DNA of 64,000 bases, from positions 20,900 through 84,899 of the forward strand of contig JANYDU010000046.1 in NCBI GenBank assembly GCA_025359805.1. Reading direction: 5' to 3'. The notes under the pieces were generated by a model. It was not told the DNA's origin. It ran no database searches and worked only from the letters and a program-made list of their open reading frames with translations. Every line of letters begins with the position of its first letter. Within the stretch, counting starts at the first letter, position 1. Below, in pieces: positions 42,040 through 59,459 of the stretch. This DNA is from Bacteroidota bacterium (GTDB lineage: Bacteria; Bacteroidota; Bacteroidia; UKL13-3). Both the position numbers and the translations under genes were made by a program.

Positions 42040-44715
42040 CTACTCAATCACAATTTTTTTATTAACGATGCCATTTGAAGTAATCATTCGTAAAAAATAA
42101 ATTCCACTTTTAAACACAGAAACATCTATTTGAGTTTGGTTATTATTGATGATTTGAAAATTTATTGAACTGGCGTTTCCTAAAATATCAATAATACTTA
42201 TTTCTTGTATTTGGTTTGATTGAATCATCAATTTATTTGAAGATGGATTTGGATAAATTTCTATATCCGCTTTTGTATTACTTAAATTTACGGCCTTTAT
42301 TTCGCTATATATATATTCTCCATCAAAGTCGATTTGTTTTAAGCGATAGTAAAATACTCCTGTTATGTTTAGCAGAGTAAAGGTATCTATAAACTGATAG
42401 CTGCTAATTGAATTTGTTGTTCCATTTCCTTTCACTCTTCCAACAGTTAGCCATTGGCTATTGGCTGTTGGCTGCAACGAACGCTGTAATTCAAATCTAT
42501 CATTATTTAGTTCACTTGCTGTTTGCCATGTACAAAGCACGTTGTTTTTATTTTGCAATTTTGCATCAAAAGCAATTAAATGAACCGGCAATACACCCGT
42601 ATTGCTAAAGGCTGTTATAAATGCATCATCACCTCCTGTACTTCCTATTGTATATTGGTATGCTCCACTATGAGATATACCTGATGATGAACCTGTTATT
42701 CCTGTAATAAATATATTGCTACTCATATCTAAAGCTATTCCATATCCCCAATCAATACCACTTCCCCCATAATAAGTTCCCCATGTACGTGCTCCGGTAG
42801 AACTGAAGTTTGCAACAAAGGCATCTGTTGTACCTCCCCCATAAGTGTTTTGATAAGCTCCTGCACTAGCCATAATAGATAAAGTAGATGCAGTGTTGGT
42901 ATTCCCTGTTATACAAATACTACTTCCACTCGCATCTGTGGCAATAGCATTTCCCGCTTCATTGCCGCTACCTCCATAATAGGTACTCCATAGTCTTACA
43001 CCATTTGGGGTAAATTTTATAATAAAAGCATCACCCGTTCCACTTGAAGTTCCTCCTCCATATATTGTTTGATAAGCACCAGATGATGCCATACCTGTAC
43101 CTGAAGCAGTTGATCCTGTTGCAACTATATTGCAATTAGTATCGGTAGTTATTCCATACCCCCAATCTTTACCATCAATACCATAGTAGGTTCCCCATAA
43201 TCTTGTTGTACCTGTGGAGTCAAACTTTACTACAAAGGCATCACCATTGCCTCCTCCATAAACGGTTTGAAAAGCTCCGGTTGAAGCAATGCCAGTGGTG
43301 GCGTATGCATATCCAGTTACAATCACATTATTTAATTTATCTGTTGTTATGGCATTTCCCTGAGATCCATTATAATATGTTGCCCATAATATACTACCTG
43401 ATGGAGCAAACTTTGCAATAAAAGTAGCAACTCCGAAACTATTAATAGTATCATAAGCACCAGATGTAGCTATGCCTGAAGCAGAGTAAGTATTTCCTGT
43501 TATTAATATATTTCCACTCGCATCTGTAGCTATTCCATATCCCCAATCTTGGCCACTTCCACCATAATAAGTCCCCCATTTACGCACTCCTGTTGAATCA
43601 AATTTTACTACAAAAACATCAAAACTTGCAGTAAGAGTTGTTTGATAAGCACCAGTTGTGGCGATACCCGAATTTGAATATGTTTTTCCCGTTACAACCA
43701 CATTATTGTTCCTATCAGCTGAAATACCATGCCCCTCATCCTGCCCTGTACCTCCATAATAAGTAGCCCACAATAATGCCCCCATCGAAGTAAATTTAGC
43801 AACAAATATATCCGAAGTACCTGCATAACTGGTTTGAAATGCTCCACTTGTTGCTACATAAATCGAAGAAGTTGTTTTTCCCGTTACTAATTCATTTCCA
43901 CTTATATCAAGTGCTATAGCATACCCCCCCTCATCTCCACTACCCCCAAAATAAGTAGCCCAAGGAATTGGGTCTATAATTAAGGTAGCTGTTTTATTAT
44001 ACCTTGGTATAGAAAAGGAGTATTCATTTAAATTAAATGAAACATAATTTACATTTATATTTTGCTGCGTTTCTTCAATAAAACTTTTGGGTATTTGCTC
44101 TTCAATATTTCCTTGTTCCAATTGTAAAATAATTTTATCATTTTGTATTGCCGTGCTTAATGCTCCCTTATATCTCCACCTTATTTGTGTTGCATCCGCA
44201 CCAGGGTGTATGATGAAGTTGTATTTAAGCTGTTCCTCTTCTTTATAAAAGTTAAGAGGAATAATAAATTCTAAGTCAATCCCATTATACAAATTAATAT
44301 AAATTACTTTCTGATAGGTTCTCACATTTAATGCCCCACTTTGGGAAGTGCCTGTTGTGTAAAAATTTTTATATTCTGATGAGGGTTGTTGGGCAATAAT
44401 TTGAGGGTTTGTATTTGCATTTATAAATTCAATATCTATCCGGTGAAAATAAATGCTATCAATCCCCTCTTGAGAAGAATTAGAGAGGCTCTCCTGCATA
44501 TAGGTATCGTAACTAAATCCATTGCTAAGTAATTGCACATTTAGGCCATTGGATGTAAACAAGTATTTTACCGCTGTATTTGGAATATTATTTTGGTTTA
44601 TAATTTGTCCTTTGTTTTCTATAAAACCAAACTGAGATTTATAATTTATTGTATAGGCATCAATAAAACTCACAATTAATAAAAATAGTACACCGTTTTT
44701 TTTTAAGGATAGCAT
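42040..44715 (-). CDS. T9SS-secreted SBBP (seven-bladed beta-propeller) repeat protein
   Basis: FIENKGQ N-domain; seven repeats of about 64 aa starting W(A/G/S)TY(Y/F); LPV..F Ig-like domain; type A CTD IYPNPS...KIVIE. Minus-strand promoter TTG-N19-TATCTTTG at 44737-44766. Confidence 0.88.
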   Translation of the reverse strand: MLSLKKNGVLFLLIVSFIDAYTINYKSQFGFIENKGQIINQNNIPNTAVKYLFTSNGLNVQLLSNGFSYDTYMQESLSNSSQEGIDSIYFHRIDIEFINANTNPQIIAQQPSSEYKNFYTTGTSQSGALNVRTYQKVIYINLYNGIDLEFIIPLNFYKEEEQLKYNFIIHPGADATQIRWRYKGALSTAIQNDKIILQLEQGNIEEQIPKSFIEETQQNINVNYVSFNLNEYSFSIPRYNKTATLIIDPIPWATYFGGSGDEGGYAIALDISGNELVTGKTTSSIYVATSGAFQTSYAGTSDIFVAKFTSMGALLWATYYGGTGQDEGHGISADRNNNVVVTGKTYSNSGIATTGAYQTTLTASFDVFVVKFDSTGVRKWGTYYGGSGQDWGYGIATDASGNILITGNTYSASGIATSGAYDTINSFGVATFIAKFAPSGSILWATYYNGSQGNAITTDKLNNVIVTGYAYATTGIASTGAFQTVYGGGNGDAFVVKFDSTGTTRLWGTYYGIDGKDWGYGITTDTNCNIVATGSTASGTGMASSGAYQTIYGGGTSSGTGDAFIIKFTPNGVRLWSTYYGGSGNEAGNAIATDASGSSICITGNTNTASTLSIMASAGAYQNTYGGGTTDAFVANFSSTGARTWGTYYGGSGIDWGYGIALDMSSNIFITGITGSSSGISHSGAYQYTIGSTGGDDAFITAFSNTGVLPVHLIAFDAKLQNKNNVLCTWQTASELNNDRFELQRSLQPTANSQWLTVGRVKGNGTTNSISSYQFIDTFTLLNITGVFYYRLKQIDFDGEYIYSEIKAVNLSNTKADIEIYPNPSSNKLMIQSNQIQEISIIDILGNASSINFQIINNNQTQIDVSVFKSGIYFLRMITSNGIVNKKIVIE

Positions 44716-45236: not shown

Positions 45237-46328
45237 TCATATCTTTTGTACTACAATCGTATTTGATTTTTTAGGAGTATAAACTATTTCTCCGTTAGAA
45301 TTAAAAAAAGGAAACCGGTATAAATCTTCAGGTATAATATCAGGTATATTTTTTTCACCCATTAATTTTAGTGTTGCAGTTTCATATTCATCGATATAAA
45401 ATAGTTTATCCTTACGAACAATAACTTTTAATGTAGTTGATGAATAATAAAAATCGCAAACAGTAAATCTAATATTAAATATATCTCCTTTTTTCACTCC
45501 ATTGAAAGAAGTTTCAGGAAGGTCATTTGTGTAAAGCTTATTGACACTATTTTCAGTTGTGTTATATAAATACGGACAAGAATAAAACATCAATCTGTTT
45601 TCTTTATATATAAAGTTTAATAGCCCATAACCAATATGTTGCTCTTTGTTAAAATCAGGAAGCTCAACATCAACATAGTCTTTAAATCTCAATTTACCAG
45701 AAATATTCGTCCATTTTCCTATGAAATAATTGTTACTTTCTGATATTTTTTCTTTTGAAATTGTGAAATAAAAATTACTCCCTTCTTTATAAAAATCTCC
45801 ATCTTCTAATAAGTAATATCCTGGTTCAATATACATATCTTGAATAGCATAACTTTCAATAATTTTTCCATTTCTAATTCTTACTAAGACAAAAAAAGGT
45901 TGCATTATTATATTGCTCAAAGAATTCCCTTCTTGAATTGGCTTGGCTTCAAATCCACGTACCTTTATATATATTTCATTATCTCTATCAACATAGATTT
46001 TAATTTTACATAAACTTTGATTCATGTTATTATTATCATAATAAAATTTTGCTTTATTATATGATATTCCATTATCATTAAAATACTTATTGTAAATATC
46101 CATTTCAAAATCACTACCAAATACTACGTGATTTAATATTTTATTCGAATCCAATTGAAATTGCCATATCTCCTTATTTGTATTGCTTTTAACAGTAGCA
46201 ATATTATTTTTAATGGACAATATGCTTACATCAGTCGGGGTAATTCCAATCGGATATTTAAATGTTTTTTTTGCATACAGGCAGTTAAAAAGTAAAAAAA
46301 AACATATTAGATAAAAATATTTTTTCAT
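45237..46328 (-). CDS. Hypothetical secreted protein (beta-rich, possibly propeller-like)
   Basis: MKKYFYLICFFLLFNCLYA signal peptide; Tyr/Asn/Ile-rich; no family recognised. Confidence 0.7.
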   Translation of the reverse strand: MKKYFYLICFFLLFNCLYAKKTFKYPIGITPTDVSILSIKNNIATVKSNTNKEIWQFQLDSNKILNHVVFGSDFEMDIYNKYFNDNGISYNKAKFYYDNNNMNQSLCKIKIYVDRDNEIYIKVRGFEAKPIQEGNSLSNIIMQPFFVLVRIRNGKIIESYAIQDMYIEPGYYLLEDGDFYKEGSNFYFTISKEKISESNNYFIGKWTNISGKLRFKDYVDVELPDFNKEQHIGYGLLNFIYKENRLMFYSCPYLYNTTENSVNKLYTNDLPETSFNGVKKGDIFNIRFTVCDFYYSSTTLKVIVRKDKLFYIDEYETATLKLMGEKNIPDIIPEDLYRFPFFNSNGEIVYTPKKSNTIVVQKI

Positions 46329-46482: not shown

Positions 46483-46517
46483 TGGCATGGTTTACCACTC
46501 TTTGGTAAATGATGCCA
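46483..46517. promoter_or_regulatory. Palindromic operator candidate between divergent genes
   Basis: TTTACCA-CTCTT-TGGTAAA (46491-46509) flanked by TGGCAT/ATGCCA; extra half-site TTTACCA at 46461-46467. Confidence 0.45.
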
Positions 46518-46916
46518 GTTGTTTTTTTATATTGCAATATACTTACAGAAACAAAAAACAACTCAACCTCAATTACAGATAACCAGCGCATAGGCAGAGC
46601 CATGAAGCAAATTAGGTTATCCAATAATTTAAAACCTTTTTATGTTGCCACTCATATTGGTTACACTGATGATAGTACCTATTACCGATTAGAACGAGGG
46701 GAAACAGAACATATTGATGAATCAAAAATTAGAACCTTCTGTAAATTGATGGATTGTAATATTGTTCACCTATATAAATTAGCAGGCATTGAAGTATTTG
46801 AAACTAAAATAAAAACTTGGGATGAGTTTTACAGTTTGATACCAAAGCTAAATGATGAAGAGGCAAAACATATCATCGAACTATATAAAAAATATCTCCC
46901 CCTAAAAAATCAATAG
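46509..46916 (+). CDS. XRE-family helix-turn-helix transcriptional regulator
   Basis: IGRAMKQIR...VATHIGY...STYYRLERGE HTH_3 pattern. True start may lie downstream (e.g. ATG 46602). Confidence 0.8.
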   Translation: MMPVVFLYCNILTETKNNSTSITDNQRIGRAMKQIRLSNNLKPFYVATHIGYTDDSTYYRLERGETEHIDESKIRTFCKLMDCNIVHLYKLAGIEVFETKIKTWDEFYSLIPKLNDEEAKHIIELYKKYLPLKNQ

Positions 46917-46977
46917 CCTTGGGCAGGCTGCATAAAAATACTGTAACTTAAAATGATTAATTTGAAAGTTTAAACCC

Positions 46978-47370
46978 TTATAAAAATTGCCTAATACTTT
47001 CAGCAATTTTTTTGTATTCATCAGGTGTAAATTGTTTGCGTTCGTTTTCAAAATTTAAATCGCCAATGATATTCATTGGCACTAAATGAATATGTACATG
47101 AGGAACTTCTAAACCAATAACGGCAATACCAATTCGTTTGCAAGCAATTGCTTTTTTTACAGCAGTAGCAATAATTTTTGAGAATAAATGTAAGCCTGCA
47201 AATTGCTCATCATCCAAATCAAAAATATAATCTGTTTCTTTTTTGGGTATTACTAAAGTATGTCCGGCAGCAAGTGGGCGTACATCTAAGAATGCTAAAA
47301 AATCTGTTGTTTCGGCAATTTTATAACAAGGAATTTCTCCGTTTACAATTTTTGTAAAGATGGTTGCCAT
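46978..47370 (-). CDS. HIT family nucleotide hydrolase
   Basis: IFTKIVNGEIP, GHTLVIPK, HVHIH triad. Confidence 0.95.
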   Translation of the reverse strand: MATIFTKIVNGEIPCYKIAETTDFLAFLDVRPLAAGHTLVIPKKETDYIFDLDDEQFAGLHLFSKIIATAVKKAIACKRIGIAVIGLEVPHVHIHLVPMNIIGDLNFENERKQFTPDEYKKIAESIRQFL

Positions 47371-47372
47371 AA

Positions 47373-47846
47373 TTATAATTTAATTTCTATAATCTCAAAT
47401 TGTACCACTCCTGCAGGTGCTTTTATTTCTACAATTTCGCCTAATTTTTTTCCCATTAACCCTGCACCAATTGGCGATTTTAAAGAAATTTTTCCTGTTT
47501 TAAAATCAGCTTCGCTTTCCGATACCATCATATAAATCATTTCTTGTTTTGATTTAAGATTGCGCACTTTCACTTTACTCATCATCATTACTTTGCTGGT
47601 ATCTAATTTACTCTCATCAATAACACGTGATTTACTAACGATATCATCAAGCTTAGCAATTTTTGCTTCCAATAATCCTTGATCTTCTTTAGCTGCATGG
47701 TATTCGGCATTTTCACTTAAATCACCTTTATCACGTGCATCAGCAATTTGCCTAGAAATAAAAGGACGTTGAACATGTTTCATGTCATACAATTCCTTTT
47801 GCATTTTTTCTAATCCTTCTTTCGAAACGTAATTAATATCTGCCAT
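47373..47846 (-). CDS. greA: Transcription elongation factor GreA
   Basis: GDLSENAEYHAAK, ISLKSPIG, AP.G. ATG at 47846. Confidence 0.97.
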   Translation of the reverse strand: MADINYVSKEGLEKMQKELYDMKHVQRPFISRQIADARDKGDLSENAEYHAAKEDQGLLEAKIAKLDDIVSKSRVIDESKLDTSKVMMMSKVKVRNLKSKQEMIYMMVSESEADFKTGKISLKSPIGAGLMGKKLGEIVEIKAPAGVVQFEIIEIKL

Positions 47847-47867
47847 AATCTCTTTCTTCAATTAAAT

Positions 47868-47932
47868 ATAAAAACAAAAGAAACGCTCCCTTTTTCAGAG
47901 AACGTTTCTTTTTAAAACTCTATTCAAATATA
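47868..47932 (-). terminator. Intrinsic terminator/attenuator between the porV-like gene and greA, downstream of a -7 box
   Basis: Minus strand: TATATTTG (47932-47925), then AAAAGAAACG-TTCTCTGAAAAAGGGAG-CGTTTCTTTT-GTTTTT. Confidence 0.7.
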
Positions 47933-49027
47933 TTAACTTTTTTTGCTTCCTATTAATAATCTAATACCTACATTATAAATTCCGTTAAAAACTCTTGTTG
48001 GAGCCCAAGCAAAATCAACTCCAATTGTGGTTCCATTTTTACTAATTGGAACCTGAATGGTACCACCGGCAGTAAAGCCATAATATTGGGTTCTATAAGC
48101 ATCATTAGTTGTAATACCTGATTGCCATCCATATCCACTTCTCACCATAAATGATTCTTTAAACGAATACTCAAGTCCACCTGTTAAAATATTAGAAGCA
48201 AAGGCATTGTAATTAAAATTTCCGGATGCCGTTAAACGATGAAAATAAGTATCTGCATTTTTATCTAAACGCATATCATAAGATGCACCAATATTTACTA
48301 ATGCAGGAAGGTTGTATGATTGTGACCCCATCAACGTTGTTCTTTGTGCGTTGGTAGTTTGGTTAACAATAGTTTTTAGGGATAATCCATTTCCATTAGC
48401 CGTCATATTTGGACCAATATTTCTCACACCAATTCCAAAACGAAAATCTTGTTTTTTGATTTTATTTTTGGGGTTAAGTGCTGTTTGGTATTGTACACCA
48501 GCATCAAGACCTACTCCTTGTGCACTTACACTTGTTATCCCTTCAGAAATAAACCTAAGCACCAATCCTCCCGTAATACTGTTTGAGAATGTTTTAGAAT
48601 AAGCAGCTCCAATATTTATTATTTGGGGCGAATAATTGCCAAGTGTTCCATCAGGTTGCGCTTCTGAAGTAACAGGTATATTTCCTAAATCCCATGAAGA
48701 TACGGTTAACCCCAAAACACCACCTGACGACCCTAAAGATTGTGCTAAAGAAAGTGTATTGATATTAATATTTGTGCCTTGTAAATAATTTACTCTTGCA
48801 AAAACAATTTCTGTATTTTCTGTATAAGCAAGCCCGGCAATATTATATTGAAAAGCTTCAACACCTCTAACAGAAGCTGTATTAGCGCCTCCTAATCCTG
48901 CACTTCTAGAATATGGATTAATTAGTAATTGTGTAGCTCCAGCACCTCCGGCACGATCTGGATCACCTGCATATACTGTTGAATAAAACATCAAGCCAGT
49001 AACAATTTGTAAAAAATATTTTTTCAT
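47933..49027 (-). CDS. PorV/PorQ-family outer-membrane beta-barrel
   Basis: QLLINPYSRSAGLGGA...YNIAGLA N-terminal motif of PorV-like barrels; amphipathic strands such as LDAGVQY, VRNIG, GLEY. Confidence 0.8.
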   Translation of the reverse strand: MKKYFLQIVTGLMFYSTVYAGDPDRAGGAGATQLLINPYSRSAGLGGANTASVRGVEAFQYNIAGLAYTENTEIVFARVNYLQGTNININTLSLAQSLGSSGGVLGLTVSSWDLGNIPVTSEAQPDGTLGNYSPQIINIGAAYSKTFSNSITGGLVLRFISEGITSVSAQGVGLDAGVQYQTALNPKNKIKKQDFRFGIGVRNIGPNMTANGNGLSLKTIVNQTTNAQRTTLMGSQSYNLPALVNIGASYDMRLDKNADTYFHRLTASGNFNYNAFASNILTGGLEYSFKESFMVRSGYGWQSGITTNDAYRTQYYGFTAGGTIQVPISKNGTTIGVDFAWAPTRVFNGIYNVGIRLLIGSKKS

Positions 49028-49052
49028 ATATTTATTTTTCTAATAAGTAGGA

Positions 49053-49072
49053 GCATTGGAAAAATCCAATGC
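49053..49072. other. Intergenic stem-loop inside the TBDR operon
   Basis: GCATTGGA-AAAA-TCCAATGC perfect 8-bp stem with no long U-tract on the minus strand. Confidence 0.45.
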
Positions 49073-49089
49073 CCATATTTTTTTTATTT

Positions 49090-52000
49090 TTAGAATGAAT
49101 CGTAATCGGCAGGCCTCATTACACCATACCATTTTAACATTCTTTCTTCTCCCAAATCTGTTGCATAAATATGAATGAGATAAATGCCACTCACAATTGG
49201 AACTTTAGCATCATTTTTTAAATCCCATTCTTCGTATGTTTTTGTACCATCATCACGTTTAATAGAACGTACTAAAACACCATCTATAGAATAGATATTT
49301 ATTGTACATCTTTTAGGCAGATTGGTAATTTTTATTCTGGTATCAAGCGCATTTCCCGGATCTTCATAAGTTGAGAAAGCGTAATAAGGATTTGGAACTA
49401 TATTTACAATATCAAGTGCTTTTTTGGCAAATTGCTCATTGGTTTGAGCAGCAAAACCTTTGGTACTAAATGTGTAATATGGTAATCCATGGTTTGTAGC
49501 AGTATCTGGTGGAGTTAATTGTCCAGATAAATCTTTGTAACCTCCTAATTGATAAGAAGCGTAAGGTCTTTTAACATTAATTGAAATAGTAACATCAGAA
49601 GGTATTATACCATCATACACTGATTTAAGTACTGTACTGTTTGATACTGTTGGGATGCTTGTGTACAATGCTTGCGAGTAAAATACTCTTTTACGAGTGA
49701 TGTACGCAAGTGGTGCTGATAAATTACCATTGGCATCACTTTGGTTTAATAAATCTCCCATTAACGCACTATAATTTTTACACGCATCATAACGAGTTGG
49801 AGTATATTTTATACTTCCGTTTGAAAGCGAAAACTTTTTAACTCCCATCACATATATAAAATGTTTTCCTCCAAATATAGGCGACCCTCCACGGTTATAA
49901 CTTGCAACATTTTCAGTTGGATTCCAAAGCATATCCTGTCCATTTTCTGATGGTAATGATGAATCTTCTCCAAATAAAATATTAAGTCTTTCGCCAGTTT
50001 CAACATTAATAGCATAACCAGGAAACCATCCCATCCCTGTGGGTGATATATAATCGGCAGCATCTACGTTAGTAGCCCCTGAAAGCCCACCATTATCAGT
50101 TGTTCTTCCATTTTTATCAACAGATTTAGCAAGCCTAACATCCATTTTATCTGCACCACCAACATTTATATTTTTATCTTCTCCCGTTTCTAAAACAATA
50201 CACCTCGACCATTTAGATTTATCTGAAGTAAGAACAACCTGAACACTTTGAAGATCAGATATTGGATTATCTGTTGTACCTCCCGGTTGTTGTGACCAAC
50301 CCGGACCATTACTACCCAAACTACCTGCAACTTGTTGGAACCTTGCAGCAAGTGCATAAGGAGACCAAGTGGCATTAATCATTTTACCATAATTTTTTCG
50401 AGGATCAAGTGCTCCACTTGTAGTTCCAAAATCACTTGTTTGAGCATTACTAAAAGGAGGACTAAGATCTTTTCCTGCCAACCCTGCCCTTATCCAATTT
50501 AATTGGTTAGTAATATTATAGGGTGCATAATTTGCATCTTCATCAGAAACACCTATAAGCCATGGCTTTGATTTATCATCGGCAAAAACCATACTTGATG
50601 AAATGTATCCATTGCTTAAATCTACTAATGAATTTGCATCTCCCGGAGAGATTGATTGATTAATATTAATAGATAAACCCCATTGAGGGAACAACTGCTC
50701 ATATTGATTATCAATGGTTCTTTCCGCAGCTTTGGTTTCTCCTGTGGTAAGATTACGTAAATACCAAGTTGTTTGGCTTGCTGTAAGTGCTGAATCTTTT
50801 TTAACTGATTTCGAAGAATCTTTCATAAACAAAACAAAATCGGCAGCACGCACACTTAGTGGATCTATAACTTTTACATAAACTGGTGAAGATCCTTGTA
50901 AATATGTTCTTGGATTAGATTTGTAAAGAGAATTAGAAGATAACGCTTGGTTAATACTTTGTTGTGAAAGTTGAATAGAATAACCCCCATTACCTACACC
51001 CTCATATTGAGTAACCGGAATACCATCGCCAAAATTAGAATTTATTTGTGTTCCATTGCCTCTTGGTGCAGGATCGTGTGGAGTAACTGTGTAGATATGT
51101 ATGGCATCCTCGTTAATTGTTTTACTACTTTCTAAATATTGTAGTGGATCATTTATACATGTTGTGGCTACCGAATAGGCCAATATAAAATAATTATAAT
51201 TTTGAAAATTAATTAACCCCTGATTACTTCCAGATTGGAAAAAATCCTTATTAATTAAAAATGAATGTTGGATACCTGTATTGGCACCGCTAACCATTCT
51301 TTTTGATACGTACACACCTAAATCAGGATCAAAATATTTGTTAACTACTTTTGATACGCTATCGTTTATATCAAACTGCGCTATCAATTGCGCTTGAGAT
51401 GGATCATATACATCACCCGGAATATTTGGTAATTTTACCTGAAAAACTTGATAGCCTTGAAATCTATAAGTAGTACGTGTTTCACATACCCCTTGCCCTG
51501 CAAAAGAAGTAACAAAATTTTCAACTGTTGTATCAGGAATAATAGTAAATAGCAATTGATTGTTTAATTCAACTATCGACATTTTTGGTGCAGGAGGCCC
51601 AGTAATCAATGCAAAATTATTTTTAAACAACGCATACGCTTTGTCACTTGCTTGTTTAAGTAAATTAAAAGAACCTGTTGCTCCACCTGTAGTTGCCCGA
51701 GCCCAAACCACACCAATAGTGATGGTATTAACCGCACCGGGTAATAGGCTAAACGGACCGGCTGTTTGTAAAAAACGTCTATCGCCAGGAGTATTTCCAG
51801 CAATTCTTTCTGTCCATTCAGCACGTTTTGGTATAGCAGGATCGGTTGTACCTGGAAACATAAAACTTGCCGTATCAGAACCTCCATGTCCATTTCCTCC
51901 ATAAGTAATTGGAGTGGCATCTTTCCATCTTCCATTTAAGTATCCCCAATAATGTTCTGGTCGTTGAGGATTTCCTTGCTGACTAAAATCATTATTATAG

Positions 52001-53073
52001 TATACAAATTTGGTAAGTCCTATTTCTTTTCCTTTTGAATCTTTTGGTCCTTGAAAAAAATTTACCCCAATACTTGGAGGGTTTAATCCATATCCTAAAA
52101 TACCTGGATCATTATCTTCTCCATTATAACAAATTCCCAAATTTCTTGTTACATCACACTCAACATAATCATCAGAATAATTTCCCAAATCAGGATCTAC
52201 CCATTGACCAAAAATACAGCTATCAATTTTTTCGGTACTTCTGTTAATTACTTTGGTACGATAAAAAGTCATATTGTTTATTTCATTGTTTGTTGAAAAT
52301 GCAAAGCATTGAGTTTGCAATTCAAGTCCAATAGGAACCCCTTGTGTTTCGGAGTGAATATTTCCCTTATCGTTATAAATCATAAACATCATTTGATCAG
52401 GAATATTTACTGTTACATTTTGTTCAAAAGATGGGTACTCTCCAAGATAGGGTTCATATTTTTTATTATTATTAAAATCTACAAAAGGAGCTAAAAGAGG
52501 AGCTTGTCCTTGGGTAACATCTCCCTCGCAAGGCCAAGTTGCAATATCATCACTTGGGTTACTGAAGTTGTTTGAGTTGTTTCTAAAGTTATCCAAATCC
52601 GTTAGTTTTATACTCCAAATTTTATCATATTTTTTACATGCATCAGCATTAATGGATGCTGTTGCATTTGTTAATGGGCCGGGGTAATAATCGTTACCAT
52701 TTTGTCTGTAAGTTTGAGCTGCAATTCGAATATTATTATTAGTAACTCCTCCAATCCATAAAGCTCCAGAGAATAATGAGTTTTTAGAAACCTGCCCCGG
52801 AAGCACTTTAGGAATTTCGTATTTTGCGTTACTTAAATTCCACCACATATCACCTCCATTTAAAATAGTGGTACGAACATTATTTACATCTAGTGCTCGT
52901 TGTGCAGTTGCTGATGCACAACCCGAACCCATTTTCATTAATATTAATTGAGGATTGTTAGCTGGTTTAATTCCAATGTTTTCTTTTGCTTCAACAATTA
53001 AAGAAGTAAATAACAATGCTGTGGCAATGCACAGTATTTTGAAAATTTGTAATGAAGAATTCAAGCGTTTCAT
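49090..53073 (-). CDS. Large secreted protein with FN3-like region and atypical T9SS-like C-terminal domain
   Basis: Signal peptide; DFNNNKKY Ca-loop-like motif; PPAP...FQGYQVF...YNYFILAY FN3-like segment; CTD IVPNPY...TNLP..CTINIY..DG.LVR...WDL.N...SGIY. Confidence 0.75.
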   Translation of the reverse strand: MKRLNSSLQIFKILCIATALLFTSLIVEAKENIGIKPANNPQLILMKMGSGCASATAQRALDVNNVRTTILNGGDMWWNLSNAKYEIPKVLPGQVSKNSLFSGALWIGGVTNNNIRIAAQTYRQNGNDYYPGPLTNATASINADACKKYDKIWSIKLTDLDNFRNNSNNFSNPSDDIATWPCEGDVTQGQAPLLAPFVDFNNNKKYEPYLGEYPSFEQNVTVNIPDQMMFMIYNDKGNIHSETQGVPIGLELQTQCFAFSTNNEINNMTFYRTKVINRSTEKIDSCIFGQWVDPDLGNYSDDYVECDVTRNLGICYNGEDNDPGILGYGLNPPSIGVNFFQGPKDSKGKEIGLTKFVYYNNDFSQQGNPQRPEHYWGYLNGRWKDATPITYGGNGHGGSDTASFMFPGTTDPAIPKRAEWTERIAGNTPGDRRFLQTAGPFSLLPGAVNTITIGVVWARATTGGATGSFNLLKQASDKAYALFKNNFALITGPPAPKMSIVELNNQLLFTIIPDTTVENFVTSFAGQGVCETRTTYRFQGYQVFQVKLPNIPGDVYDPSQAQLIAQFDINDSVSKVVNKYFDPDLGVYVSKRMVSGANTGIQHSFLINKDFFQSGSNQGLINFQNYNYFILAYSVATTCINDPLQYLESSKTINEDAIHIYTVTPHDPAPRGNGTQINSNFGDGIPVTQYEGVGNGGYSIQLSQQSINQALSSNSLYKSNPRTYLQGSSPVYVKVIDPLSVRAADFVLFMKDSSKSVKKDSALTASQTTWYLRNLTTGETKAAERTIDNQYEQLFPQWGLSININQSISPGDANSLVDLSNGYISSSMVFADDKSKPWLIGVSDEDANYAPYNITNQLNWIRAGLAGKDLSPPFSNAQTSDFGTTSGALDPRKNYGKMINATWSPYALAARFQQVAGSLGSNGPGWSQQPGGTTDNPISDLQSVQVVLTSDKSKWSRCIVLETGEDKNINVGGADKMDVRLAKSVDKNGRTTDNGGLSGATNVDAADYISPTGMGWFPGYAINVETGERLNILFGEDSSLPSENGQDMLWNPTENVASYNRGGSPIFGGKHFIYVMGVKKFSLSNGSIKYTPTRYDACKNYSALMGDLLNQSDANGNLSAPLAYITRKRVFYSQALYTSIPTVSNSTVLKSVYDGIIPSDVTISINVKRPYASYQLGGYKDLSGQLTPPDTATNHGLPYYTFSTKGFAAQTNEQFAKKALDIVNIVPNPYYAFSTYEDPGNALDTRIKITNLPKRCTINIYSIDGVLVRSIKRDDGTKTYEEWDLKNDAKVPIVSGIYLIHIYATDLGEERMLKWYGVMRPADYDSF

Positions 53074-53104
53074 TTGTTATGTGTTTATTCTTGTTATGAA
53101 AAAA

Positions 53105-56100
53105 TTAAAATGTTACTGATATACCTAAACGTGTAAGCCTTGGTAAGGCAAAATTGGTAGGATTTACAACCTTCACATTATACAAGTCAGCAAACGACTG
53201 CGCACTGGTTGCACTCTTAATTGCTGCGTTTGCTTGTGGCGAACTTAAATATCCATCACTATACGCAGAGCCTGTGTATTGGTAAACACTTAGCACATTA
53301 TCTGCATTAAAAATATTTTGAATTTCAAGGTATATACGTAATCTATAAAATGTTGTTTTACCTTCAAGACTTTCACTTTTTATGGTAAAGTATTTATCAA
53401 TATTTATATCTGTATAAAATTGTGATGGCAGATTTGCTCCGTTAATTGTTCCTTTAACTTGGCTACGTGAGGCAACTCCATCTTGTGCAGTTGTAATAGG
53501 TTGAATAATTTGTGTATATGGTCTACCCGATGACGAATTGAAAATTAAGTTAAAGCCTGCATTTTCAAATATTTTCTTTCCACCAACAATAGGTCCATCA
53601 TAAAACTTTCCTTCTTTGTAATGATAATCAAATACGCCTTTTAAAATATGGCGGGTATCAAAATTTGAAGGAAAAATATTTCTTTGTTGCGATAATCCAG
53701 ACTGAATTAATGATGCACTTGAACTGATATTTGAACCCGTTGCTTCGGCAAATTGTAAAGTATAATTTGCTGTTAAATTTACATTTCCCAGCTCTCTTAA
53801 CGTGTATTCAAGTCTAACACTTTTTACTGTTGAAAAATCAATATTTCCATAGGTAGTATAATCATAAGGCCAAGCTTGAGTGTATCTGTATTGTTGAAGT
53901 AAATTACGGAACTCACGATATGAACCAATGATTCCCAAACTCGCATCATCACCAATTTGTTGGCGGAAACCAATTTCAAAATCTGTTACTTGAGTCATTT
54001 TCAAATCAGGATTTCCAATAACAGCACCTTGCCTATTACTCATATAATAATAATCATCAAACTGTGCAATATTAGCTCCTTGTGTTGGGCGTTGCGCCAA
54101 TACATCATAAGTACCAAAAAATTGAGCCGTTGTGGATATAGGAAAAGAGAACCAAATACGTGGTAAAAATTTTACATCTGGAGTATAATTTTTAAATGAA
54201 GCTGCATCTGGATTTTTTTGCCCTGCATTAACAAGATAAGGGGTATTACGAGAAATTTGAGAACCATTTGCTACTGAGTTTTTGAAAAGTGTTTGAGGAT
54301 CTGTTACTGGATTTCCATTTGCATCAAACCAATCATTTCCATTTCTAAATCCCGAAATATGAGTTTGTCCTTGAGTTTGCTTTTCGTTATCAATATAAAC
54401 AGCATAACCATCGCCAATATTAGAAGGAATACTTGATGCAAGATTCAATGCATCGTTTCTTTTTACATCACCAACAGAATAAATTGGAGCCAATGAATAT
54501 GGATCTTTTAATACTTGTTGATTAGCATCATAACGCTCCATACGCATACCTAAACGAACAATCAAATCTTTAAATACAAATTTATCTTGCACCCAAGCTG
54601 CCATATAAATTGGTTGAAACGCTCCAAGCGGGCGAAGTTGTTTATCCTGTAAAAATTTATCAATGCTTTGTTTGCCATCCACTCTATTGCCTAAATAATC
54701 ATACCCATAATAATTAACATATGAGTTTCCATTATTTAATAACTCATCGGCATTAAACATCTTTAATGAATACGTGCTTGGATTGTATAAGTTCACATCC
54801 AATTTTGTTTCATTGGTAATTGGATTCCCATAAACATCTGTAGCACCTTGAGCCATTAATTGTGTACGTAAATTTTTATCAAAATTACTTTGATTGGCTT
54901 CTACAATATAAGGATGAAATTTTACTGTATCTTGAAAAACGCCATTGGCATTAAAATTTAAAATAGCTTTATCTGGTGATAAACTATCTGTAAATTGTTG
55001 GTTTGTTAATTGTCTCATCAACAACCATAATGTATTCGCATTTAAAGAATAACCTCTTTGAAATTGTTGCTCATAAGTAAATCCAAATTGTAAATCGTGA
55101 CGGGCTTTTGGATTGGTACCAACACTTGCTTCACTCATTACATATAACGAGTATGTTTCGTTCATTTGTTTACTATAATTGGCTTGCAATGCTCCAGCAT
55201 TATTCCACATATATGAATACACACCAGTTGGTTCATATCCATTAAGCAAACCACCTTGTTGAGTAATTTCACTCAAACTTCTAATTGGTAAATTATTTTT
55301 ATTGTAATAATCAAATATGGTTCGGGTATAATTTCCTTTTACAGTATTAATATCTGCTTGTTGAAAAGTGGTAAGCGTATCTGTTTGTGTTGATCTTTGT
55401 TTCCAATAATTTGTTAAATATACATAAGCCGAATCTCCGTTTTTAGTTTTGTAACCATATCTATCAGCAGGTTCACCAGTAGTAGTAAAACTCTTTTGTA
55501 TTCTATCATAAGTTGAAGTAGAGTATGTACTAAACTTACCAATATAGCCATAGTTAAAAAAATCCTCACCGTAATCAGCACTTTTTGATTCTTGATAATA
55601 TCTCTCATAAGAAAGCCTTACAGTATAAAACGCATTGGATATGAATGCCTTTTTCGCTTCTTCATCAGTTTTTTTAGTAAAGGTTTGTGTAAACTGAACG
55701 TAAGGTCTAACGGTTACAAAAGTACTTAGCGCATTGTTTGATGAGTTAAGTAATGAGTTGGAATAATTTGCTGCATTAAATGCACCACGCCCGCTTTGAT
55801 AATTAGCTTGGTAACCAAACTTTACATTGATATTGTTTGCAGGTGAATAAGTAAAACTTCCTGATAAATTATAGTTTTGTTGAGCAACATTTTGTCTGTA
55901 AGGTATTTTTTGTAAATCATTTTGAGTGAGATATTCGGCAGAGTTTACAAATCCTCCAGTTGCACTTTTTGTTAACGGTTGATATTCTATTTGACGCAAT
56001 ACTTCCGGTTTTACTTGATATAAATCTGTTACTGATAAACGTGGATCACGAGTATATGTACCAGTTCCAGCAATAGAAAATCCAAATAATACCCTTTCTG

Positions 56101-56917
56101 TATTTTGTTTTCCTTTGTTTATAATTTTAATTGGTCCTGCAATAAATGCTTGTAATTCGTTAGACTGTGAATTGTCTAAATAACCGTAAAACGGACTTGA
56201 AGTTCTGTATTCAAAAAAACGTTGAAAGATTTTTGAAGGTGATTTTGTAGAAATAGCAATCGCTCCACCAATAAAATCTCCATATTGAGCTGGTGTTCCA
56301 CCAGTAATAATAGTTACCTGATCAATAGCTCCTTGAGGAATTCCACTTTGACCATTTACTCGCACACCATCCACATAATAAGCGGTACCATCAGAGCGAG
56401 CTCCTCTAAAATTTGGTGTTCCTCCAGCTCTTGCATCCACTCCAGCAAATGTATTGGCAATCATATTTGGATTACGTTGTGGCAAACGCATTACTTCTTT
56501 TGCTGTAACCGTACCCCCTCCTTTTCCTTCTGGATCCACTAATGGCTTTTTACGAATCACTGTCACTTCAATTAAATTAGTCCCATTTTCATTGGATTCC
56601 AAATTGATATTTTGAAATGTGGTTACATCACTCACAATATCCACATCAGTAATCACAGAATTTCTATACCCAACAGATGTAACCTTAATTTCATATTCAC
56701 CGGGCTGAAGTGTTTTTATAACATAATTTCCATCGTCATCTGTAATGGCTGTTGCTTTTAATATTCCGTTAAGGAATAAACTAACACTAACAAAATCCAT
56801 GGGCTTTTTTGTTTTAGCATCAATTACTTTACCACGTAATTCTCCTAACTGAGATTGTGCATTAGCTAATAAACAAAAACCTAAAAATGCGAATAGTAAA
56901 CTGTATATTTTTTTCAT
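53105..56917 (-). CDS. TonB-dependent transporter with carboxypeptidase-regulatory-like N-domain
   Basis: GKVIDAKT...TDDDGNY domain; TonB-box-like IEVTV; plug RGAR..GTAYYVDG...ITGGTPAQYGD..GG; GNPDL; C-terminal PRLTRLGISVTF. Confidence 0.88.
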   Translation of the reverse strand: MKKIYSLLFAFLGFCLLANAQSQLGELRGKVIDAKTKKPMDFVSVSLFLNGILKATAITDDDGNYVIKTLQPGEYEIKVTSVGYRNSVITDVDIVSDVTTFQNINLESNENGTNLIEVTVIRKKPLVDPEGKGGGTVTAKEVMRLPQRNPNMIANTFAGVDARAGGTPNFRGARSDGTAYYVDGVRVNGQSGIPQGAIDQVTIITGGTPAQYGDFIGGAIAISTKSPSKIFQRFFEYRTSSPFYGYLDNSQSNELQAFIAGPIKIINKGKQNTERVLFGFSIAGTGTYTRDPRLSVTDLYQVKPEVLRQIEYQPLTKSATGGFVNSAEYLTQNDLQKIPYRQNVAQQNYNLSGSFTYSPANNINVKFGYQANYQSGRGAFNAANYSNSLLNSSNNALSTFVTVRPYVQFTQTFTKKTDEEAKKAFISNAFYTVRLSYERYYQESKSADYGEDFFNYGYIGKFSTYSTSTYDRIQKSFTTTGEPADRYGYKTKNGDSAYVYLTNYWKQRSTQTDTLTTFQQADINTVKGNYTRTIFDYYNKNNLPIRSLSEITQQGGLLNGYEPTGVYSYMWNNAGALQANYSKQMNETYSLYVMSEASVGTNPKARHDLQFGFTYEQQFQRGYSLNANTLWLLMRQLTNQQFTDSLSPDKAILNFNANGVFQDTVKFHPYIVEANQSNFDKNLRTQLMAQGATDVYGNPITNETKLDVNLYNPSTYSLKMFNADELLNNGNSYVNYYGYDYLGNRVDGKQSIDKFLQDKQLRPLGAFQPIYMAAWVQDKFVFKDLIVRLGMRMERYDANQQVLKDPYSLAPIYSVGDVKRNDALNLASSIPSNIGDGYAVYIDNEKQTQGQTHISGFRNGNDWFDANGNPVTDPQTLFKNSVANGSQISRNTPYLVNAGQKNPDAASFKNYTPDVKFLPRIWFSFPISTTAQFFGTYDVLAQRPTQGANIAQFDDYYYMSNRQGAVIGNPDLKMTQVTDFEIGFRQQIGDDASLGIIGSYREFRNLLQQYRYTQAWPYDYTTYGNIDFSTVKSVRLEYTLRELGNVNLTANYTLQFAEATGSNISSSASLIQSGLSQQRNIFPSNFDTRHILKGVFDYHYKEGKFYDGPIVGGKKIFENAGFNLIFNSSSGRPYTQIIQPITTAQDGVASRSQVKGTINGANLPSQFYTDINIDKYFTIKSESLEGKTTFYRLRIYLEIQNIFNADNVLSVYQYTGSAYSDGYLSSPQANAAIKSATSAQSFADLYNVKVVNPTNFALPRLTRLGISVTF

Positions 56918-57027
56918 TAAACTATGATTTACGAATTGGCGTATTAAAATTATGAATTGGTAAATTAAATTAAATTAGATTAATTAATCAAAATTTAACG
57001 TGTAATAAAATTTCCCCAATCCATTTG

Positions 57028-57960
57028 TTATTCATTTAACTCTTTTATTTTTTGTAATAAAACGGTAGATATTTTTTTGTAGGACTCTGATGTCCAACCT
57101 CCAACATGTGGTGTTAACACCGTTTGTGATGAGGTTTTAAAATATTCAAAAATATTTTTTTCTGCTTCGTTCATGGTGCTTAATTTTTCGTTTTCGAGAA
57201 CATCCAATGCCGAAGCAAGTATTTTTCCACTTTTCATTGCCTCCATTAAATCCTCCAACTTTACAATTTTCCCTCTCGATAAATTCAGTAAAAAAATATT
57301 TTTCCTGAACTTATTTAAGAACTCTTTATTCGCTAAAAATTTAGTTTCATTTGTTAAAGGAATATGAAAAGATATAACATCAGCGTGTTCAAAAATTTCA
57401 TCCATCGTTACTTCCGAAACAAATTCATCAGCAAAATTTTTTAAATATTTATCATACGCTAAAACTTTCACATCAAACCCAGATAATTTTTTTGCAACTG
57501 ATTTCCCTGTATTTCCGTAGCCAATAATTCCAATTGTTTTTCCATTTAATTCCACTCCCCTATTTCCTTCTCTATCCCAAATTAGTTTTCTTACTTCATC
57601 ATCTGCTTTAATAATATTGGCAAATAAACACAACATCATTCCTATCGTTTGTTCGCCCACTGCATCAGCATTTGCTTCACCTGCGTTAAAATATTTTATT
57701 CCATTTTCGTCACAATAATCAGTATCAATATTATCAACTCCAGAACCGGCACGTGCTATAAATTTAAGGTTGATTGCTTTACAAAGAACATCTTTATCAA
57801 TTTGAGTTTTAGTGCGCACCACTAAACCTTCGTACTTATCTATTTCTGTTAACAAATCGGCTCTTGCTGCATTGGGTTTATAATTTATTTCATAACCAAG
57901 TTTAAGCAATCCATTTGTTAAAATTTCATGCACATCATCAATAATAAAAATTCTTTTCAT
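57028..57960 (-). CDS. D-isomer-specific 2-hydroxyacid dehydrogenase (SerA-like)
   Basis: RAGSGVDNID, GIIGYGNTG, NLSRG, LDVLENE, TPHVGG. ATG at 57960. Confidence 0.9.
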   Translation of the reverse strand: MKRIFIIDDVHEILTNGLLKLGYEINYKPNAARADLLTEIDKYEGLVVRTKTQIDKDVLCKAINLKFIARAGSGVDNIDTDYCDENGIKYFNAGEANADAVGEQTIGMMLCLFANIIKADDEVRKLIWDREGNRGVELNGKTIGIIGYGNTGKSVAKKLSGFDVKVLAYDKYLKNFADEFVSEVTMDEIFEHADVISFHIPLTNETKFLANKEFLNKFRKNIFLLNLSRGKIVKLEDLMEAMKSGKILASALDVLENEKLSTMNEAEKNIFEYFKTSSQTVLTPHVGGWTSESYKKISTVLLQKIKELNE

Positions 57961-58043
57961 CAAACCGTTTATGTAAAAAATTTGGTGCACGAGTTTAATA
58001 CAATAGTTCAATAAAAAATAAAATTGGTTGCACCAACAAGAAT

Positions 58044-58071
58044 TAGTGAGCAGTGAGGAGTGAGAAGTGAG
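58044..58071. repeat. Tandem heptamer repeat (NAGTGAG)x4
   Basis: TAGTGAG CAGTGAG GAGTGAG AAGTGAG in the mgtE-dehydrogenase spacer. Confidence 0.7.
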
Positions 58072-58106
58072 TTTTAAACTATGTACCCTGAACTAAAAAC
58101 TATCAA

Positions 58107-59459
58107 CTAATAAAGCATTCGCCCAACGCTAAAGTAAATAGCTAATCCTAATAAATCATTTGTGGTGGTGATAAAAGGGCCGGTGGCAATAGCAGGATCT
58201 ATTTTCATTTTATTTAAAACCAAGGGTATAAATGTGCCGAGTACTGATGCAAAAACTATCACTGTAATTAATGCAACACTCACCGTAATTGCCAAATCAA
58301 ATGAATCAGAAAAAAACATGTTGTACGCAAAAATAAGTGCCGAACAAATAATTCCGTTTAACATTCCTACACGTAATTCTTTTAAAATTTTAGGCATAAT
58401 ATTTTTTGTACCCAATGTATTATTTGCTAAACCTTGAACCACAATTGCAGATGATTGCACTCCGGCATTTCCTCCCATAGCGGCAATGAGCGGAATAAAA
58501 AAAGCCATCTCGGGATGTATTTGAATTTGATCTTCATATACCGCAATAAAACGCGATGAAGCAATTCCTCCCAATAAACCAATTAGCAGCCAAGGCAACC
58601 GTGCACGCGAAAGCACCCAAACTTTATCTGTTGAATCTACATCTTCAGTAATACCACTCATCAACTGGTAATCTTCGTTGGCTTCTTCTTCAATTACTTC
58701 CACCACATCATCCACAGTAATTCTTCCCACCAATTGCCCAAGTGCATTTACAACAGGCAGCACTACCATATCATACTTCTTAAATAGGTTTGCAATTTCT
58801 TGTGAGTCGGTTGAAGTGGAAACAGAAATAACTTGCTTGTTAAATACTTCTTCAATTTTTAATTCGGGTTTGGAGAGGATTAAATTTTTTAGTGTGATGA
58901 TGCCAACCAAACGTTCAAATTCATCAACAACATAAACTACATAAATCGTTTCTACGTTTTCCGCCTGCCGTCTTATTTCTTCAATACATTGTGCAACCGT
59001 CCAACTGATATTTGCTTTCACTAATTCAACAGCCATCAAACTTCCTGCTGTATATTCCTCATAATTTAATAAAGAAAGTAAGCTTGATGCAAACTCAATA
59101 TCTGTTAAATTACCAATCACATCTTCTTGTTCTTTGGTATGAAGATGTCCGAGTACATAAGCCGCATCATCAGAATCCATATTCTGAATAAACTGATCGG
59201 CAATTTCTTTTGTAGAGTATGCCGAAAGAAAATGTGCTCTAACACTTTCTTCCATTTCAACCAATACTTTTACTATTTGTTCTTTAGGCACATTGCTCAT
59301 TACATAACGAGCTTCTTCATTATCTAATTTATCAAGCAGTTCGGCAATATCCTGAGGGTAGATAGTTTGCAAAAGCTCACCAAGCGCTGTTGAATTTTGT
59401 TCACCAACGAGTTGTTTTACATTTTTTACAAAAGCAATATCAACCGATATGTTCTCCAT
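58107..59459 (-). CDS. mgtE: Magnesium transporter MgtE
   Basis: N-domain, CBS pair, RLPWL, MGGNAGVQ, DPAIATGPFITTTND. Confidence 0.97.
   Translation of the reverse strand: MENISVDIAFVKNVKQLVGEQNSTALGELLQTIYPQDIAELLDKLDNEEARYVMSNVPKEQIVKVLVEMEESVRAHFLSAYSTKEIADQFIQNMDSDDAAYVLGHLHTKEQEDVIGNLTDIEFASSLLSLLNYEEYTAGSLMAVELVKANISWTVAQCIEEIRRQAENVETIYVVYVVDEFERLVGIITLKNLILSKPELKIEEVFNKQVISVSTSTDSQEIANLFKKYDMVVLPVVNALGQLVGRITVDDVVEVIEEEANEDYQLMSGITEDVDSTDKVWVLSRARLPWLLIGLLGGIASSRFIAVYEDQIQIHPEMAFFIPLIAAMGGNAGVQSSAIVVQGLANNTLGTKNIMPKILKELRVGMLNGIICSALIFAYNMFFSDSFDLAITVSVALITVIVFASVLGTFIPLVLNKMKIDPAIATGPFITTTNDLLGLAIYFSVGRMLY

Follow-up and report, generated by a model that had tools for sequence, protein, structure and literature searches.

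Three adjacent genes of a Bacteroidota bacterium (assembly GCA_025359805.1, contig JANYDU010000046.1) encode a TonB-dependent transporter (P0001), a large secreted protein of an unnamed family (P0002) and an outer-membrane barrel of the PorV/PorQ family (P0003), and the trio is an ancient linked cassette found across the phylum. The genes lie in the 64,000-nt stretch that we analysed (positions 20,900-84,899 of the forward strand of the contig), hereafter called the window. We give a probability of roughly 0.55 to the reading that P0002 is a surface protein exported by a type IX secretion system (T9SS), is held by its C-terminal domain (CTD) on P0003, and serves as the capture or lid subunit of the importer P0001. 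In such a scheme the three genes would form one outer-membrane module. P0002 would cross the inner membrane by the Sec pathway and then be exported through the T9SS by way of a divergent, type-A-like CTD. P0003, a PorV-family barrel dedicated to P0002, would capture this CTD, thereby keeping the 1300-residue protein on the cell surface, as is thought for PorZ on PorQ and PorU on PorV. P0001 would be a TonB-dependent importer with very large extracellular loops and P0002 most likely its capture or lid subunit, so that the module would be a T9SS-built counterpart of SusC/SusD and of pairs of a transporter and a surface lipoprotein. We infer that the P0002 CTD is retained, that P0002 contacts the transporter and that a substrate is imported.

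Conservation of gene order is the most direct evidence that the three genes belong together. We considered the best 80 of 549 stretches, taken from species genomes, that encode a P0002 relative. Of the 76 loci with room upstream of the P0002 homologue, 75 have a transporter gene there, and of the 77 with room on the downstream side, 76 have a barrel gene. Full-length copies of all three genes are present in 56 of these 80 loci, where most intergenic distances fall between -43 and 85 nt. The sole locus that breaks the order (L052) is an extra P0002 copy, and the same genome (G401) holds a full cassette elsewhere (L164/L165/L162, C1:1153176-1168839), in which two tandem transporter genes come first; the orphan paralogue lies 2 Mb away. 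The order also holds far outside Bacteroidia: we selected 20 genomes that represent 17 families of other classes and took the best locus of each, and in all 20 loci a transporter gene, a P0002-like gene and a PorV-like barrel gene follow each other on one strand, at 25-35% identity. Cultured carriers include Portibacter lacus and Portibacter marinus (Saprospiraceae). An original prediction, made from the letters of this DNA, treated the three genes as a unit that should recur together in other genomes, and they do so.

In one complete genome of another class (G036), a transporter gene likewise precedes 10 of 14 additional PorV-family loci, and nine of these 10 have an intervening large gene (615-1285 aa). 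The nine middle proteins carry no Pfam domain besides one weak FlgD_ig tail match. The architecture is modular and multi-copy in this genome, resembling polysaccharide utilization loci. By comparison with such genomes, the cassette is single-copy in the organism studied here, where we found no second full-length transporter of the P0001 type. Copies of P0002 outside complete cassettes also exist. One genome (G363) has a second P0002 copy after the barrel gene, with no transporter of its own (L169, on C15). On another contig of the present genome (C47, 60192-61403), an 892-aa ORF encodes a partial second P0002 relative, matched only at positions 50-456 of the family profile and not beside any PorV-family match.

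These patterns also speak to a different explanation, which we regard as doubtful, in which P0002, as an adhesin, enzyme or surface-layer-like protein, forms a self-contained display pair with P0003 and the transporter is adjacent through shared regulation or old gene order. A transporter directly upstream at nearly every locus, down to 25-35% identity, exceeds ordinary conservation of gene order, and the paralogous cassettes of G036 keep the transporter even with unrelated middle proteins. Copies that stand without a transporter, namely the second one in G363, the orphan in G401 and the partial paralogue on C47, are nonetheless more easily understood for a display pair. Moreover, a housekeeping neighbour of the trio is conserved as well, so kept order need not mean shared function, and the binding support from structure modelling described below is confined to the CTD and the barrel.

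P0001 has a signal peptide, an N-terminal domain resembling the carboxypeptidase regulatory domain, a TonB-box-like motif and a plug. A profile built from 10 homologues finds the same N-terminal fold in PDB chains (E 3e-6), and the L..V.V pattern of the TonB-box-like motif is retained in the family consensus. The six Pfam matches at E≤0.1 include no barrel family, and hence not the Oar-like barrel family. The NCBIfam scan likewise gave no SusC/RagA match (TIGR04056) at E≤0.1. When the P0001 family profile was compared with PDB sequences, it recovered only the N-terminal domain and, weakly, the plug; recognition of the barrel depended on a fold search. An AlphaFold2 (AF2) model of residues 110-1270, based on an alignment of 50 homologues, has a mean predicted local distance difference test score (pLDDT) of 84.8 and a predicted template modelling score (pTM) of 0.81. 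With this model, Foldseek returned full-length matches to PfeA, PirA, PhuR, FhuA, BtuB, XusA and TbpA, with E-values down to 3e-23 and target-normalised template modelling (TM) scores of 0.54-0.74 over the transporters listed. In view of these matches, P0001 is, by its modelled fold, a genuine plug-and-barrel TonB-dependent transporter, with a barrel of the 22-strand type as judged by alignment and not by counting strands singly. The matched proteins have 576-891 residues, as against 1161 in the model, so that about 450 residues, in the loops of P0001, are extra; the original prediction had likewise noted long inserts.

A barrel of this kind could conceivably work in the opposite direction, and the Myxococcus TonB-dependent protein Oar has a proposed role in protease secretion. 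We therefore weighed the idea that the transporter-like barrel exports, assembles or anchors P0002, or that the trio is an envelope-maintenance machine. The N-terminal carboxypeptidase-regulatory-like domain of P0001 is shared with Oar-type proteins, and in this genome the cassette is present once, amid housekeeping genes, with a conserved dehydrogenase neighbour and no catabolic genes nearby, all of which would suit such a role. We nevertheless consider it very unlikely, given that the Oar-like barrel family is missing from the Pfam matches of P0001 and that the conserved plug and TonB-box-like motif are importer-like. A multi-domain beta protein of 1300 residues would also be improbable cargo for a plugged 22-strand barrel, and the absence of the P0002 family from the sampled PorV-less family (see below) fits export by the T9SS instead.

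P0003 belongs to the PorV family in the broad sense, with 124.4 bits to NF033709 (PorV_fam; cutoff 90). It falls below the equivalog cutoffs for PorV (NF033710; 65.6 versus 250) and PorQ (NF033711; 58.5 versus 220), and has no match to PorV2 (NF052325) at E≤0.1. A profile of P0003 homologues matches the Flavobacterium johnsoniae PorV chain 6h3i_F (E 6.3e-13). Other contigs of the same genome encode a true PorV (494.8 bits), a PorQ (330.9 bits) and two further family members, so P0003 is not the only, housekeeping PorV copy. We built a tree by a quick method from 65 PorV-family proteins drawn from the related loci, the present genome and five others, leaving out two near-duplicate rows (L090 and L091). 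The 34 barrels that adjoin P0002 homologues, P0003 among them, form one clade (Shimodaira-Hasegawa-like approximate likelihood ratio test [SH-aLRT] support 99). PorV (99), PorQ (98) and PorV2 (100) form clades separate from the cassette barrels, the last consisting of members of the NCBIfam model titled "putative type IX sorting system protein PorV2" (L136 at G363:C11, L140 and L141). The sister group of the cassette barrels (joint support 88) contains other PorV-like barrels, several of them encoded behind transporter genes. Family models and this tree set P0003 apart from PorV, PorQ and PorV2 and make it a private paralogue, as the original prediction had supposed. The string "PorV2" in PMC10994853 was considered as a protein name and rejected, as at that place in the article it is a citation superscript. 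One of the family members on another contig (C37) was considered as a possible second cassette; it has no co-oriented ORF within 1 kb upstream.

P0002 begins with a signal peptide, followed by a conserved N-terminal module (residues ~50-700), a variable middle (~700-1200) and a conserved CTD. Across classes, identity is 23-33% in the N-terminal module and CTD and 8-10% in the middle ~500 residues, with the CTD highest of all, at 33%. Among 77 sequences (alignment A7), the CTD keeps PNPY (residues 1227-1230), a G, a W and SG.Y, and the tail ends in Phe. Conservation of this degree accords with retention and use of the domain. The type B CTD model has no match in P0002 at E≤0.1 in the NCBIfam scan, and the type A model matches below its cutoff, in line with the atypical CTD that had been predicted. 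Distant P0002 homologues give weak FlgD_ig matches in 5 of 20 cases and weak Por_Secre_tail matches in 2 of 20.

Modelling of the complex of P0003 with P0002 residues 1200-1327 gave a score of 0.84, and the best of three control pairs scored 0.00. Of 80 solved complexes, 58 attain the mark that this score passes, as do 2 of 110 mismatched pairs; the figures are only rough here because we used our own alignments. Runs of the model agree in at least 91% of contacts, with a partner pLDDT of at least 78. The predicted interface takes in the invariant PNP motif of the CTD. On the side of P0003 it covers a conserved N-terminal segment and conserved loop residues, and R25, G27, G30, I117 and P125 are among the barrel positions involved. 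Binding of the P0002 CTD to the P0003 barrel, which had been put forward as something to be looked for by complex prediction, is thus supported at the level of a model, and the CTD is predicted to be the docking element for P0003.

Binding might also be transient, with P0003 a mere shuttle, the CTD cleaved, and P0002 released or lipid-anchored without a stable complex. P0003 is homologous to the shuttle PorV, and the P0002 CTD has the usual type A motifs (PNP and G.Y). This outcome seems unlikely to us, since, across classes, no part of P0002 is better conserved than the CTD with its extra tail, and a barrel gene is kept one-to-one beside each cargo gene; the cognate PorV-like barrels of the PorZ-PorQ and PorU-PorV pairs, as described in the relevant part of PMC10202324, retain the CTD.

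The remainder of P0002 belongs to a very large family, with at least 4177 clusters at E≤0.001 among 8000 candidates scored, in which we found no Pfam family for P0002 itself. Its relatives are named in their sources as hypothetical and occasionally as "T9SS type A sorting domain-containing". Pfam searches of 20 distant homologues and of nine middle proteins from paralogous cassettes gave no domain for the body of the protein, and the P0002 family profile has no match in the PDB at E≤1. An AF2 model of residues 29-1227, made with 71 sequences, has a pLDDT of 84.3 and is nearly all beta, mostly beta-sandwich. A search of the ESM Atlas returned only unnamed or CTD-bearing clusters. Likeness of the model to GH94, GH116 and heparinase II was considered and read as a shared beta-sandwich, not as function, at TM scores of 0.10-0.17. 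The NCBIfam scan found no match to the PorU or PorZ families.

The original prediction had seen in this 1327-aa protein, whose ORF and signal peptide were both found, Ca-loop-like and FN3-like segments. The first of these descriptions corresponds to the acidic loop at residues 293-303, in which D293, D295, G297, D301 and D302 are invariant across classes; this loop, kept across the phylum, is a candidate calcium-binding site on the strength of its residues. The FN3-like segments are loosely supported: the mostly beta-sandwich model agrees with them, and only 1 of 20 distant homologues has an fn3 match, which is weak.

For 401 genomes sampled evenly from the phylum, 101 of them Bacteroidia, we examined how the distribution of the P0002 family relates to those of the T9SS and SusD, taking PorV as the marker of the T9SS with a match threshold of E≤1e-40. 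The P0002 family is present in 195 of the 401 genomes, PorV in 308 and SusD in 217. Among the 195, the family-positive genomes without a PorV match are G010, G015 and no more than one other, and the one sampled taxonomic family that lacks PorV (0 of 87) also lacks the P0002 family (0 of 87). The P0002 family is therefore co-distributed with PorV, which is consistent with the T9SS tie that had been proposed for the secreted protein. A passage of the paper on the Flavobacterium machinery for beta-barrel assembly (the BAM complex) reports that SusCD and SprA are missing from Chlorobiota (PMC12611786), and the PorV-less sampled family agrees with that statement.

Complementarity with SusD is a lead and not a proof. 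The present genome (2.47 Mb, 84.5% complete) has no match to the SusD models PF07980 and PF14322 in the sequence available, and no SusC/RagA match above cutoff either genome-wide or at the P0001 locus. At least 15 TonB-dependent receptor genes in this genome encode carboxypeptidase-regulatory-like N-termini. Among the sampled Bacteroidia, the P0002 family occurs in 5 of 7 SusD-less genomes versus 12 of 94 that bear SusD (Fisher p 0.0013, with kinship ignored), and in one taxonomic family (f2) 2 of the 21 genomes carry the cassette, and the same two are the only ones of the 21 that lack SusD. The proposal that the trio is an alternative to SusC/D is therefore upheld in part: the SusD-less genome and the enrichment agree with it, and the fact that 12 of the 17 Bacteroidia carriers also have SusD does not.

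Several observations weigh against the importer reading. The type A match in P0002 (TIGR04183, residues 1244-1304) scores 15.8 bits versus a cutoff of 23, Pfam gives no PF18962 match, and hhalign assigns a probability of 0.9% to an alignment of the P0002 CTD with the canonical CTD of an 891-aa T9SS cargo encoded in the window, in which the PNP motif alone is aligned. Complexes of PorV with a CTD have already been solved, and the matched chain 6h3i_F is from such entries, so the favourable score for P0003 and the CTD may mirror likeness to these structures. The fold search with the P0002 model gave only partial matches (best E 3.8e-5; query-normalised TM 0.10-0.17), and P0002 has no recognisable binding or catalytic domain in these searches. 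Neighbouring genes, as classified by Pfam, include no SusD, glycosidase, peptidase or regulator adjoining the trio, and so offer no hint of a substrate. The neighbours are of housekeeping type; the original prediction likewise saw no adjacent SusD, glycosidase or regulator. The SusD comparison spans few, related lineages whose genomes are not independent, and SusD is also present in most cassette genomes outside Bacteroidia as well as in 12 of 17 within; the cassette is therefore not simply a SusD replacement. Finally, the linkage to a dehydrogenase gene, together with the single copy in this genome, could indicate an envelope role instead.

All parts of the cassette are of known kinds, and their combination is apparently undescribed: a search of full-text literature, supplements not covered, found no description of the trio. 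It resembles SusC/SusD (RagA/RagB) in that a large TonB-dependent barrel with a carboxypeptidase-regulatory-like N-terminus is encoded beside a presumed surface partner, in being multi-copy in some genomes, and in a distribution that complements SusD in the sampled Bacteroidia. However, the trio has neither SusD nor a lipoprotein, P0001 has no SusC/RagA family match, and the partner is a 1327-aa Sec/T9SS-type protein with a barrel of its own, whose contact with the transporter is conjectural. In TbpA-TbpB-Slam systems of Proteobacteria, a TonB-dependent transporter works with a surface capture protein and a small barrel that places the capture protein on the surface. The trio would follow the same three-part logic, and TbpA-TbpB complexes are among the fold matches of P0001, but its barrel is of the PorV/FadL type and not Slam, its partner carries a T9SS CTD and not a lipid anchor, and it occurs in another phylum.

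Bacteroides BtuB-BtuG and XusA-XusB illustrate how varied surface partners can be, and a XusA-XusB complex (9gbc) is among the P0001 fold matches. These non-SusD lids differ in being lipoproteins that use the lipoprotein route with no accessory barrel; BtuBG is cited in PMC12578637. BamG/BamH of the Bacteroidota BAM complex, a FadL-like barrel with a surface lipoprotein, was considered as a comparison and rejected because, as presented in a part of that article, it has a barrel of another family, a lipoprotein partner and no transporter (PMC12578637). A closer parallel for the barrel is provided by the PorZ-PorQ and PorU-PorV pairs of Porphyromonas gingivalis, in which, according to a section of PMC10202324, a cognate PorV-family barrel is thought to hold an uncleaved CTD. 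P0002 and P0003 likewise combine a T9SS-type CTD protein with a cognate PorV-family barrel that is predicted by modelling to bind it, but P0003 falls in a separate clade and the pair is encoded behind a TonB-dependent transporter. The same section describes SprB-SprF of Flavobacterium johnsoniae, in which the gene for a type B cargo is followed by one for a dedicated PorV-like barrel (PMC10202324). This is the gene order of P0002 and P0003, but the NCBIfam scan shows no type B CTD or PorP/SprF match at E≤0.1, and the trio has a transporter partner and no evident link to motility.

Within the window, the three ORFs are on one strand, with intergenic gaps of 31 and then 62 nt, and a hairpin followed by a T run closes the unit (Table 1), as the original prediction described. 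Terminator-like sites number 12 in positions 46800-58200, versus 6.3 +/- 2.9 in shuffled sequences. The hairpin in the gap between the P0002 and P0003 genes has no proper T run; it may act as an attenuator or mark a place of RNA processing. The upstream neighbours are a phosphoglycerate-dehydrogenase-like gene, mgtE and ksgA, and the downstream ones are greA and a HIT-family gene. The product of the dehydrogenase-like gene best matches PGDH in NCBIfam (251 bits, under the equivalog cutoff). Among Bacteroidia, 51 of the 54 loci with room have such a gene directly upstream in the same orientation; among other classes 4 of 20 loci do, and there the neighbours (L092, L093, L094 and L108) are of a long form with an ACT domain. 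The linkage between the dehydrogenase and the cassette is real, and its depth is unusual for a pairing of housekeeping and outer-membrane genes.

Table 1. Positions in the window of the cassette genes, their domains and motifs, and nearby elements
Feature	Position	Strand	Basis
P0001, TonB-dependent transporter, 1270 aa	53105-56917	minus	ORF, Pfam, AF2 model, Foldseek
P0001 CarboxypepD_reg-type N-terminal domain, residues 27-106	56600-56839	minus	PF13620, 53 bits, E 4.5e-14
P0001 TonB-box-like motif LIEVTVI, residues 115-121, between N-terminal domain and plug	56555-56575	minus	translation
P0001 Plug domain, residues 136-218	56264-56512	minus	PF07715, 32.5 bits vs cutoff 23.9
P0002, secreted protein of large unnamed family, 1327 aa	49090-53073	minus	ORF, signal peptide
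P0002 acidic loop DPDLGNYSDDY, residues 293-303	52165-52197	minus	alignments A1, A4, A6
P0002 C-terminal domain, residues 1200-1327, T9SS-CTD-like	49093-49476	minus	TIGR04183 sub-threshold, alignment A7
10-pair GC-containing hairpin in P0002-P0003 gap	49051-49074	minus listed, either strand can form	hairpin scan
P0003, PorV/PorQ-family outer-membrane barrel, 364 aa	47933-49027	minus	ORF, NF033709
Terminator-like hairpin, 16-pair stem then T run, closing the three-gene unit	47876-47912	minus	hairpin scan
Phosphoglycerate-dehydrogenase-like gene, short form (2-Hacid_dh), ~110 nt upstream of P0001	57028-58011	minus	Pfam

Further genes near the trio were noted. An 891-aa protein (42040-44715, minus strand) with DUF7948, SBBP beta-propeller repeats and a canonical Por_Secre_tail is an ordinary T9SS type A cargo, encoded a few kilobases from the trio. 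Two ORFs, at 45237-46328 (minus, 363 aa) and 46509-46916 (plus, 135 aa), have no Pfam family. In three loci from other classes, the gene after the trio (L093, 13163-15328; L097, 3492-5726; L098, 12468-14657) encodes a protein of ~730 aa with multihaem-cytochrome-like and tetratricopeptide-repeat (TPR) regions.

TonB-dependent uptake with SusD-type lids is regarded as the hallmark of how Bacteroidota acquire nutrients. To our knowledge, T9SS cargo with a cognate PorV-like barrel has been known so far only from the attachment complex and from gliding adhesins. We tentatively suggest, as a possibility with the odds against it, that Fibrobacterota-Chlorobiota-Bacteroidota (FCB) bacteria have a second ancient TonB-dependent uptake assembly, with a large, T9SS-delivered, non-lipoprotein lid or capture subunit kept next to the transporter by a PorV-like barrel of its own, and that it is the sole such system in Bacteroidia lineages without SusC/SusD. 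In that case the T9SS would take part in the biogenesis of outer-membrane transporters, beyond secretion and motility. If the importer reading of the trio is true, the T9SS would supply structural partners to transporters. That reading would also account for the transporter equipment of Bacteroidota without SusD, among them abundant uncultured lineages of fresh water such as that of the source organism, and would provide a function for a "dark" protein family of great size, with at least 4177 clusters that lack a Pfam domain. The cultured Portibacter carriers make this module hypothesis testable.

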